Shown in pieces: positions 30,401 to 33,400 of a stretch of DNA of 55,703 bases. A model generated the notes under the pieces. It had not been told where the DNA came from. It saw only the letters and a program-made list of their open reading frames with translations, and did not search any database. This stretch comes from a virus (lineage: Duplodnaviria; Caudoviricetes), in the IMG/VR virus record IMGVR_UViG_3300020156_000034, positions 1-55,703 of that record. One strand, written 5' to 3'. The position numbers were made by a program, and so were the translations under genes. The stretch's first letter is position 1, and every line of letters starts with the position of its first letter.

Positions 30401-33400
30401 CCTTCAGACCGTGGATCCCGACAAGCTGATCGACTCGCTGTCAGGTCCGGCGAAGGGGAGCGTTCCGGTCACCCAGAAGCGCGAGGCGATCGCGGAGCAG
30501 CGGGCGAAGAACAAGGCAACCCGCGACGCGGCTATCCAGCGGATCAAGGACAAGCTGAAGAACCAGGCGACCGCAGGGATCGACCCGGAGATCGTCACCG
30601 AGATGGTGACCGTCATGCGGACCTACATCAGCGACGGGATCCTCGATTTCAAAGAAGCCGTGCTCCTGTTCCAGGAGGATTTCGGCGCGAACGCGCGGAA
30701 GCTCGATCGCTACTTCGAGATCGCGTGGCGGCGGCTGCGCAATGAGGACCGGAAGGTGGCGGACGTCCTCGCGGAAGCCGCGCCGAACGTGTTCGACGAG
30801 ATTGACGCCGAGGTCTCGAAGATCACGGTGAAGCCGTTCAACCTGTCTGGCAAGGCGGCCGAGGTCCAGGCGCGCGCGATCGCGGCGCTGGAGGCGGACC
30901 CGCGGGGTTTCAAGAATCGATACCTCGAGCAGTTCGGCCGGGTACTGAATGCCGACAACGCGTCGGAACTCTTCGAGGACTACGCCGCATCGGACGAAGC
31001 CCGGGCGACGCTGGGCGCGGCGGTGCGCGCGCCGGCCTCCGCTCTCATCGAAAGCCTGTTCGAGGACCTGCTGGCGCAGCCCCCGCTCCACGGCAAGGAA
31101 CCGATCGTGGTGTTCACGGCCGGTGGCAATGCCTCCGGCAAGACGTCGGGGATCACCGACGAGCGCAGCGCGGACATCGTGTTCGACTCCACGTTCAGCA
31201 GCCCGACGCCCTCACAGGCGAACGTCGAGCGGGTCCTCGCGTCCGGCCGTGATGCACGTGTGCGTTACGTCTACCGGGATCCGCTCAAGGCGCTCCTCGA
31301 TGGGGCGCTGCCGCGCGCGATGGGCGAAGCAAACGGGCGGACCGTGACCGTCCGTGGGCTGGCGGCGACCCACATCGGCTCGCGCGAGACGGTCCTGAAG
31401 CTGGCCGAGCACTACGCCGGCGACAGCCGCGTGACCTTTGCCATCCGGGAGAACACGGAGGACGACATCGTCGACCGCGACACCAAGTGGCTGAAAGGGA
31501 AGGCGTATAATGACAGAGATGTCCTCGAAGGCCACCTCTTCGACGCTCTCGACGCCGAGCACGCAGCCGGCCGGATCGACGACGCCGTCTTCGAAGGCAC
31601 CAAAGGTGTCGGCCGCCGCGCTGGCGAAGATCGACGCGGAGATGGACGCGGCGTTTCGCAAGAACGTCGTGAAAAACCGCGAGATTCAGCAGCGCCGGCG
31701 GACGGAACGTCTAAAGACGAGGTAGGCGCAGATGGAGAATCGACTCGGCGGCCTGGGGCTGCAGATTCTCAGCCACTGGACGGATCACCGGCCGAAGATG
31801 ACGGCCCGCCTGCGAGCGGCCGGAAAGCTGGAGGCCGCGGTACACGCGGCGGAGCAGCTGACACTGGAGGCCGAGGCGCAGGCGGTGTACGAGGGGATGG
31901 CGCCGGATCAGGCCAGGGAACTGCACCGGGAGACCTGGGCGTTCCTGCCGACGGAGGACGACGTCCCACACCTGCCAAGCGGCGATCCGGCGGAATGGCG
32001 CGCCCCGGCAAGTCCGGACTCGACTACCGTATTTCCGACGCCGACGCGATAGGTTCCGGCGGGGACACCGCCAAGATTCGCGCGAACCTCGCCGCGATCG
32101 AACTTCTCAAGCGCATCGAATCCGAAGGCCGCAAGGCCACAAAGGACGAGCAGGCCGTGCTCGTCAAGTACGTGGGCTGGGGCGGGCTGGCCTCCATCTT
32201 CAAGCCGGAGAACTGGTATTCCGGTGACGGCAAGAAGCTGAAGGACCTCCTCACCGACGAGGAGTACGCCGCCGCTCGGGCGTCCACACCGAACGCGCAC
32301 TACACCAGCAAGGACGTCGTCGACGCAGTCTGGAGCGCGGTCAAGCGCCTCGGCATCGACCACGGGCGCGTGCTCGAGCCCGCCATGGGCGTCGGGCACT
32401 TCTTCGGGCTGATGCCGCGCGAGCTGGCGGGCGACACCACGTGGGCGGGGGTGGAGCTCGACTCCACCTCTGGCCGCATCGCCCAGCAGCTCTATCAGTC
32501 CGCGCAGATCCAGATCAAGGGCTTCGAGGCGGCGTTGCTGCCGGACAACTTCTTCGACCTGGCGATCGGCAACCCGCCCTTCGGCAACTACCCGATCCAC
32601 GATCCGGAGTTCCGCGGCCGTCCTCGTGCGCTCTCCAGCGCGATCCACAACTACTTCTTCGCCAAGGCGCTCGACAAGGTCAAGCCGGGTGGCGTGATGG
32701 CATTCATCACGTCGCACTACACCATGGACGCTAAGGACTCGACCGTCCGCACCTATCTCGCGGAACGGGCGACCCTCTTGGGCGCCATCCGGCTCCCGAA
32801 TACCGCCTTCAAGGCGAACGCGGGGACGGAGGTGGTGACAGACATCATCTTCCTGCAGAAGCGGGAGCAGCCGGTCCGCGCCTCGGAGCTGTCGAAGGCG
32901 GACCTGCTCTGGACGCGCACCGGGAGCGTCCTCGACGGGAAAGCCACGATCAACGAGTACTTCATCCGAAACCCCCACATGGTGATGGGGGAGCACGCGC
33001 TCGAAGGCTCGATGTACTCGGACAAGGAATACACGGTTACGGCGACCGGTGACTTGGCCGAGCAGTTGAAGGCGGCCATCAAGAAACTCCCGCGCAACGT
33101 GGTCGACACGGCCCCGGTGCAGAAGCCGGTCGAGGAGCAGTTGGAGGAGTTCGTCCCAGCGCCCGACGTCGTGAAGCCCTACGCGTTCACGCTGCAGGAC
33201 GGCAAGCTGATGGTGCGTGACGGCGGCCGTCTGACGAAAGTGACGGTCCCCGATGGGACCAAGACGCGCATCGTCGGGATGATGGGGGTGCGCGACGTGC
33301 TCCGCGACACGATGCGCACCATGCTCACCGCTGAGGCGACGGACGCCGAGGTGAAGGTCCAGCAGGGGAAGCTCGCCAAGGTTTACGACGCCTTCGTCAA

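Follow-up and report, generated by a model that had tools for sequence, protein, structure and literature searches.

Can a stretch of phage DNA encode a folded protein in one reading frame while serving, in another, as a linker within a giant gene? The question is raised by an open reading frame (ORF) for a 106-amino-acid protein, P0001, at 31732-32052 (+) of the virus record IMGVR_UViG_3300020156_000034 (Duplodnaviria; Caudoviricetes), whose whole length of 55,703 bases is the window analysed here. P0001 starts with ATG at 31732 and ends with TAG at 32050-32052. It lies entirely within a gene on the same strand, P0002 (27402-40265, +), an ORF for a DarB-like polyvalent protein of 4287 amino acids, and is read one base ahead of it, in what is called the +1 frame below. 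An original prediction made from the sequence alone had placed an overprinted, TnpV-like gene at this site, and its coordinates hold. From comparative sequence evidence, we put at about 80% the probability that P0001 is a genuine gene with its own start, nested in the linker that precedes the methylase module of the giant gene.

Frame usage and selection in the dual-coding zone

The giant gene changes character across a dual-coding zone at 31590-32052 (+), where its own frame reads as a linker rich in Gly, Arg, Ala and Asp and the +1 frame carries the wobble-GC signal. On either flank, GC content at third codon positions (GC3) in the giant frame is 0.83-0.97 in 180-base windows. Between approximately 31590 and 32040 it drops to about 0.40-0.55, and that of the +1 frame climbs to 0.80-0.88, the +1 signal beginning ~140 bases 5′ of the ATG. 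This is the only strong frame switch (minimum 0.40) in a scan of the whole 12.9-kb gene. The degeneration of the giant protein into a linker, noticed at the outset, is borne out by its composition over the zone: Gly makes up 24%, Arg 13.6%, Ala 13% and Asp 11% of residues, compared with 7.7%, 7.2%, 12.9% and 6.3%, respectively, in the remainder of the protein.

Substitutions between family members identify the frame that is selected. Per site, codon positions 1, 2 and 3 of the +1 frame differ by 0.052, 0.027 and 0.155 for 27 pairs with at least 90% amino-acid identity, 0.145, 0.117 and 0.313 for 47 pairs at 70-90%, and 0.331, 0.288 and 0.450 for 284 pairs at 50-70%, below which the signal is saturated. 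Position 2 of the +1 frame, the least-changing position, is the wobble position of the giant frame, which indicates that the linker is not selected as an amino-acid sequence. The concentration of substitutions at the +1 wobble position, in turn, marks the small gene as the selected reading, with the giant frame merely kept open. The small frame is shown to be under purifying amino-acid selection, and the giant frame to be stop-free yet unconserved as protein.

A weaker GC3 anomaly lies elsewhere in the giant gene, in a Pro/Ala-rich low-complexity stretch at 28692-29411, where another frame exceeds the giant frame in GC3 (giant-frame minimum 0.62). No long alternative ORF is listed there on the + strand, and the dip looks compositional.

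A conserved family of small helical proteins

P0001 belongs to a large family. Searched with phmmer against 1.84 billion representatives, it matches 313 clusters at E ≤ 1e-3, of which 61 reach E ≤ 1e-10; few fall outside a length of 75-190 amino acids. In an alignment of 81 relatives (median length 107 amino acids), Pro21 is invariant and H15, W16, R20, M23, L27, G31, A40, A61, L72, P73 and E75 are near-invariant. The family is acidic, with a median net charge of -5 and negative members making up 85%. An AlphaFold2 model of P0001 built on the family alignment reaches a predicted local distance difference test score (pLDDT) of 85.6 and a predicted TM-score (pTM) of 0.70, and consists of four helices (residues 7-19, 21-30, 33-53 and 58-70) followed by a less ordered acidic tail.

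A chance open frame in DNA of 66% GC, encoding nothing, has to be weighed at this point. ORF length alone is within chance, since other alternative-frame ORFs of 71-189 amino acids occur inside the giant gene, and P0001 itself lacks a Pfam, NCBIfam or PADLOC match. Chance does not, however, explain the 313 homologous clusters and the confident fold, the GC3 and substitution patterns that single out the +1 frame, or the position and frame kept in 78 of 90 sources described below; free-standing copies of the gene argue against an artefact of translating linker DNA. The nested ORF goes beyond chance because the GC3 frame switch, the homologous clusters and the conserved arrangement in relatives coincide. 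Such an empty frame is hardly credible, and is already refuted by the homology and selection data.

The resemblance to TnpV, proposed at the outset, stands in part. P0001 has the size and shape of a TnpV-type protein (small, mostly helical, ~110-120 amino acids), and the Pfam TnpV family (PF14198) is matched by 23 of the 81 relatives at E ≤ 0.1 (best 2.2e-5), over profile positions ~12-84 of 111; any other family is matched by at most two of the 81. The similarity is weak but specific. Set against the curated Pfam gathering cut-off of 27 bits, the homologue in phage Pavtok scores 21.9, that in SopranoGao 17.7, and two further proteins (P0056 and P0114) 21.0 and 20.1; no member whose score was examined attains the cut-off. 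P0001 itself matches no Pfam family at E ≤ 1. A complete lack of profile hits had been named as evidence that would speak against the gene, and the sub-threshold matches of its relatives show that such hits exist. On these profile scores, P0001 is classed here as TnpV-like and not as a member of the TnpV family proper.

Other resources add few names. A sequence-profile search of the PDB with the small family returned designed helical proteins only, and Foldseek with the P0001 model returned nothing from the PDB at E ≤ 1e-3. The best match in a wide structure search, 2apl_A (PG0816; Z 6.3, root-mean-square deviation 2.2 over 61 residues), is below the meaningful level for helical proteins. NCBIfam, PADLOC and PHROGs hold no match for the small protein except PHROG 938, and BFVD holds only a fused form of the type found in phage PBC5 (Q8W6J4_2). 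An Atlas search gave unnamed clusters and one, at rank 19, with 11% TnpV. Used as a direct query for close relatives, P0001 retrieved one protein, no viral contig and no genome contig. Ten cluster look-ups gave 'hypothetical protein' or nameless entries, seven of them from contigs shorter than 2 kb.

The nested layout across phages

The initial lead was a 36.5% identical peptide in Ochrobactrum phage POI1126, where it lies within the 'DarB-like' gp30, again one base ahead of the gp30 frame and with the same GC3 switch. For a sample without bias towards the small ORF, 90 sources were assembled on the methylase module alone: the window, nine phage records (from 112 matches) and the best 80 of 340 viral contigs. 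A family hidden Markov model (HMM) run on all six frames matched 55 of the 90 sources, and an iterated HMM matched 79 of them. All 81 of the latter matches are on the methylase strand in the +1 frame, with none in another frame; stop codons in this frame of close homologues, a finding that the original prediction would have taken as refuting it, were looked for and did not turn up.

The match is upstream of the methylase in 78 sources, which form 50 clusters at ~80% identity. Across the domain, the giant frame has no stop in any of the 50 clusters, loci of 40-50% GC included, and the +2 frame has 1-8 stops in every cluster (5-8 in the loci of 40-50% GC). A shuffle of synonymous codons within each ORF, a conservative null, puts P(no stop) at 0.04-1.0 for individual clusters, and log10 P sums to -21.6. 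Both readings, the +1 frame under purifying selection and the giant frame free of stops, are thus maintained by selection.

Eleven of the 90 sources lack a family match with the iterated HMM. In eight of them, giant genes of low GC, other domains precede the methylase and the +1 frame is rich in stops. Two (L032 and L073) have the Gly/Arg linker and a divergent +1 ORF in which the same motif can be recognised by eye, and in one (L037) the upstream sequence is too short to judge. No Gly/Arg linker is present in low-GC giant genes of this kind (L021, L022, L031, L039, L041, L049, L066 and L075; also L015, L025 and L062), from which the nested gene is absent.

The layout extends further. Ralstonia, Burkholderia and Pseudoalteromonas phages and one more Pseudomonas phage have a +1 ORF at the same place beneath an open giant frame, two of the four reaching the family HMM (3e-12 and 5e-4), and a tblastn search of plasmids found one phage-plasmid in which the ORF is again nested, beneath a 'PLxRFG' giant gene. 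With the Pavtok small ORF as query, tblastn matched 21 records from 13 phages, and the annotation under each match is the giant gene only; in the original PBC5 record (AF448724) there is an 'orf33: unknown'. The expectation that standard annotation would miss such a gene is therefore confirmed for these records.

Annotation is unusual in Pseudomonas phage Itty13 (L002), where three 'hypothetical protein' coding sequences are placed antisense to the giant methylase-helicase ORF. Over the 1.5 kb checked ahead of the methylase, no stop interrupts the giant frame, and the opposite-strand coding sequences are probably a strand mis-call in high-GC DNA.

Predicted initiation of the small gene

A Shine-Dalgarno-like GAGGT, already noticed in the original prediction, is located at 31719-31723 (+), nine bases 5′ of the ATG (GAGGT-N8-ATG). 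Its final T is the first base of a +1-frame stop, TAG at 31723-31725. The arrangement GAGGTAR-spacer-ATG recurs in four relatives (L004, L006, L072 and L079). Across the 50 clusters, the predicted start codon is ATG in 42 and GTG in eight, and a Shine-Dalgarno-like word occurs at -16 to -6 in 35, compared with 19.5% of random positions. A +1-frame stop lies 2-6 codons 5′ of the conserved Met in the window and in phages SopranoGao, Pavtok and VvAW1. The stop before the Met, the Shine-Dalgarno-like word and the start codon together argue for independent initiation and against a frameshift into the domain, and P0001 carries what reads as its own ribosome-binding site and start codon.

Several observations weigh against this picture of a nested gene. 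Start codons are unclear in some high-GC relatives, being GTG or with none nearby. A search of sequencing runs found no RNA run that holds the stretch; one DNA run, probably the source, contains a contig identical to it over 31300-32300. The summed probability from the synonymous shuffle overstates independence, as the clusters share ancestry. P1 DarB, whose gene begins at the methylase and has no nested ORF, and the eight low-GC giant genes do without the small gene. The free-standing copies described below have no constant neighbour, which weakens the idea of a dedicated partner of the giant protein. In Sinorhizobium phage PBC5, finally, the N-terminal half of the giant protein (gp22, 2181 amino acids) continues in frame into the domain and terminates after it, and the methylase frame has stops further upstream (L009/L085, locus 1400-1980); PHROG 938 models this fused form. 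The close PBC5 relative Atu_ph08 has the ordinary nested layout, and PBC5 may represent either a real split or an indel or sequencing error in an old sequence.

PBC5 is also the starting point for a frameshift explanation, in which the domain is part of the giant protein through a programmed shift and a truncated N-terminal product ends with the TnpV-like domain. The 2181-residue PBC5 product, PHROG 938 and BFVD Q8W6J4_2 all hold such a form. In several lineages, however, the +1 stops 2-6 codons before the conserved Met leave no room for a shift site, and a Shine-Dalgarno-like word and ATG are present. Free-standing homologues, in the examples read, have a Met just before the domain, and the nested layout of Atu_ph08 suggests an indel or sequencing error in PBC5. 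A programmed frameshift is accordingly given very little weight, and internal initiation of a separate small gene is preferred.

Evidence for read-through of the giant frame

A sample taken from the opposite direction, 80 metagenome loci chosen by their small ORF (the best 80 of 329 relatives), shows how the giant frame is used. The methylase lies downstream, with the small ORF in +1, in 47 of the 80; 19 lack a methylase over the 500 or more bases that follow, and 13 cannot be judged. In 36 of the 47, fewer than 120 codons separate the start of the big ORF from the domain, and 33 of these 36 N-terminal peptides contain the word QL[SDTA]LF, which is present in 36 of the 47 upstream frame-0 peptides overall. 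The word resembles the bacterial sliding-clamp-binding motif. The conserved N-terminal peptide can join the methylase only through the linker frame, which supports functional read-through, with the giant frame translated across the small gene.

In L239-L294, the conserved N-terminal peptide stands in the methylase frame, 35-75 codons ahead of the nested ORF. Contigs of 200-500 kb carry several of these loci, which are hence chromosomal. With respect to the methylase match, the small ORF of a single metagenome locus (L283) is in +2 and there is a gap of 206 bases, probably owing to an indel or assembly error.

Read-through bears directly on whether the 4287-amino-acid ORF exists as one gene. 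It could instead be an artefact in which three genes (an N-terminal polyprotein, the small gene and a methylase-helicase) are joined by a giant frame open by chance. Stops are rare in the giant frame there because its codons begin with the GC-rich wobble bases of the small gene; the shuffle gives P(no stop) = 0.17 for the window alone, a separate methylase protein might begin at the in-frame ATG at 31995, and PBC5 is annotated as two genes. The freedom from stops in all 50 clusters, including loci of 40-50% GC with 5-8 stops in +2, speaks otherwise, as does the conserved N-terminal peptide beyond the linker in 36 of the 47 metagenome loci. Moreover, in phage JC1 a DarB-like protein, annotated at 4515 amino acids, was detected among virion proteins, according to the report on that phage (PMC9144972). 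Three separate genes are therefore a very improbable account, and a single giant gene containing the small one is retained.

Free-standing copies and the probable order of events

Relatives of P0001 also occur outside giant genes. Free-standing copies comprise the 19 metagenome loci without a methylase and two further loci (L180 and L152), and their neighbours are varied, including genes for a histidine kinase, a DDE transposase, CHRD, a resolvase helix-turn-helix protein, SnoaL and a pseudopilin. A pattern scan of genome contigs gave 120 loci, four of them with true relatives. One, in a Vicinamibacterales metagenome-assembled genome (MAG), is nested in a giant methylase-SNF2 ORF, again in +1. 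In a Rokubacteria MAG the relative is free-standing between radical-SAM and ABC-binding-protein genes, in an Anaerolineales MAG it directly follows a helicase-C ORF, and the fourth is truncated.

These copies reverse one part of the original prediction. The word 'overprinted' had cast the small ORF as the newcomer, and the evidence points the opposite way: selection acts on the +1 frame, some family members stand alone, and the giant frame contributes a linker that is only kept open. Because of the free-standing members, the genome-like codon usage of the +1 frame and the low complexity of the giant frame in the overlap, the small gene is, of the two layers, probably ancestral and the linker overprinted, as far as the order of events can be reconstructed.

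A possible second +1 module upstream of the small gene

The +1 signal extends 5′ of P0001. A helical-looking peptide can be read in +1 between ~31590 and the TAG at 31723-31725, and would form a module of 39 codons at 31606-31725 (+) if it starts at the GTG at 31606, preceded by GAAGG at 31593-31597. The core motif of this module repeats in frame around the TnpV-like domain of a 374-amino-acid metagenomic protein, P0038, with copies before the domain and, after it, one strict regular-expression match and a third copy recognised by eye. Among the loci collected, the motif is absent outside the window and P0038, and P0038 as a query found nothing in metagenomes. The upstream stretch has the look of a genuine module within this +1 reading, and is either a micro-ORF or a severed N-terminal extension.

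The host gene and its genome

The protein that houses P0001 is modular. Pfam matches place a 2H phosphoesterase (2_5_RNA_ligase2) at residues 624-739 of the 4287, a zeta-toxin-like P-loop (Zeta_toxin) at 1254-1341, an N6 methylase (Eco57I) at 1714-1793, a helicase (ResIII/SNF2) at 2307-2502, Helicase_C at 2751-2834 and LPD38 at 3983-4156. A methylase and an SNF2-type helicase in one polypeptide, together with conflict domains and LPD38, are what defines a DarB-like polyvalent protein, and relatives of the host gene carry the annotation 'DarB-like antirestriction'. The nested gene is located in a late, virion-type giant gene.

The N-terminal part of the methylase module occupies 32019-33518 (+) in the giant frame and is 41-47% identical to its counterparts in the best 60 of 112 phage records and in 80 viral contigs. 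Submitted as a single-protein query, the module retrieved no viral contig. Homology to relatives begins at 32019-32061, and the beginning of the module coincides with the final 34 bases of the small gene; the small ORF does end where the methylase region begins, as had been proposed.

The virus record is whole, has a GC content of 64-69% and is rated complete by CheckV. A tyrosine integrase (Phage_integrase, E 2.5e-13) lies at 44249-44737 (-), within an ORF at 44186-45313, and the phage is probably temperate. No match to the resolvase-type domain PF00239 was found anywhere in the 55,703 bases.

Genome content matters for one further explanation, that P0001 is a transposon-type TnpV, an excision helper for a serine recombinase, at a site that is incidental, such as that of a mobile-element relic. 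Besides the sub-threshold TnpV similarity, this draws on a study of Tn4451, whose tnpV stands beside a large serine recombinase on a mobilisable transposon and whose product was postulated to aid excision on account of a likeness to lambda Xis (PMC3158075). It also draws on TnpV-carrying elements that integrate into the snf2 genes of streptococcal integrative and conjugative elements, a curious parallel to the present site, as described in another report (PMC9815147). The small gene does not, however, stand beside a large serine recombinase in the phage, whose record has a tyrosine integrase and no resolvase-type domain, and a nested site with its exact frame kept across very distant phages is unlike a decaying relic. 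A role as transposon excision factor is probably not the one served here, and this origin is quite unlikely, although a shade less so than the frameshift or three-gene accounts. An excision factor tied to a serine recombinase was set aside, there being no serine recombinase in the phage.

Discussion

The biosynthetic logic suggested by these results is that one DNA sequence yields two products: a folded, acidic, four-helix protein of 106 amino acids and, in the other frame, a flexible Gly/Arg/Ala/Asp linker that would join the N-terminal modules of the giant protein to its methylase-helicase. Ribosomes would initiate internally on the giant mRNA at GAGGT-ATG, and the small protein would be made whenever and wherever the giant protein is made. 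The layout may have arisen from a pre-existing TnpV-like gene just upstream of a methylase-helicase gene. Reading through this gene out of frame would have fused the upstream coding sequence to the methylase, and the DNA of the small gene would then have doubled as linker.

What the small protein does can be suggested with less assurance. A role with the methylase module is the best guess because of the frame-exact linkage across distant phages and chromosomal elements. The original prediction of a hidden partner or inhibitor of the methylase-helicase is kept as a hypothesis. The protein might work with the methylase-helicase, either by helping assembly or packaging or by restraining the enzyme as a regulator in the producing cell; we regard this as a tentative proposal, well short of even odds, that follows from gene arrangement. 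A prediction of the complex between the small protein and the first 500 residues of the methylase module returned a score of 0.00, without control runs, and speaks neither for nor against this role. Slightly more speculative is the general scheme in which DarB-like giants are built by 'fusion through overprinting' and the small product is a dedicated, co-expressed partner, be it a packaging chaperone, a methylase-helicase brake or an anti-defence factor.

DarB-like giants account for a fifth of the genome in some phages, and their presumed task is to disarm host restriction. A conserved gene hidden within them is a component overlooked by gene callers, proteomics databases and knock-out designs, and deleting or truncating the linker also removes the nested gene. 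The locus is a clean case of natural dual coding whose 'host' frame serves only as linker, and suggests that genes can be fused across an intervening gene without its loss. It further gives a testable context for the TnpV-like proteins of mobile elements. If the small protein is a partner of the giant one, it would be a missing component of a widespread phage counter-restriction system.

The nested gene is unreported in the literature searched on DarB-like, TnpV and polyvalent proteins, the supplements of which may list ORFs. The words TnpV, 'overlapping' and 'frameshift' are absent from the main text of the 2017 survey of polyvalent proteins (PMC5512222), and the accessible part of the JC1 report mentions no gene nested in the DarB-like gene (PMC9144972). 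What is described here is a widely conserved nested gene that is unannotated in the phage records checked; out-of-frame nested phage genes as such are already known.

Three known systems offer comparisons. The host gene is most like P1 DarB and the large polyvalent proteins of Iyer et al. 2017 (PMC5512222), with which it shares a methylase and SNF2 helicase core and LPD38; P1 darB differs in starting at the methylase, with no nested ORF. P1 DarB is known, from a database record note, as a virion-carried protein that protects incoming DNA from restriction, and the DarB-like protein of JC1 was found in virions by mass spectrometry (PMC9144972). The nested product is like TnpV of Tn4451/Tn4453 (PF14198), a small helical protein of ~110 amino acids from mobile elements. 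Unlike TnpV, it is encoded within a virion-type gene and not beside a recombinase, in a phage without a serine recombinase.

In its arrangement, the gene resembles Rz1 in Rz, where a complete small gene with its own start sits inside a larger one, read from the same strand but shifted to the +1 frame; phage JC1 has an Rz/Rz1 pair of its own, assigned to the 'embedded' class in its description (PMC9144972). The present case differs from Rz/Rz1 in that the giant frame in the overlap is a low-complexity linker without amino-acid constraint. It differs also in that the nested family occurs free-standing and its host is a polyvalent gene of the 4000-amino-acid class.

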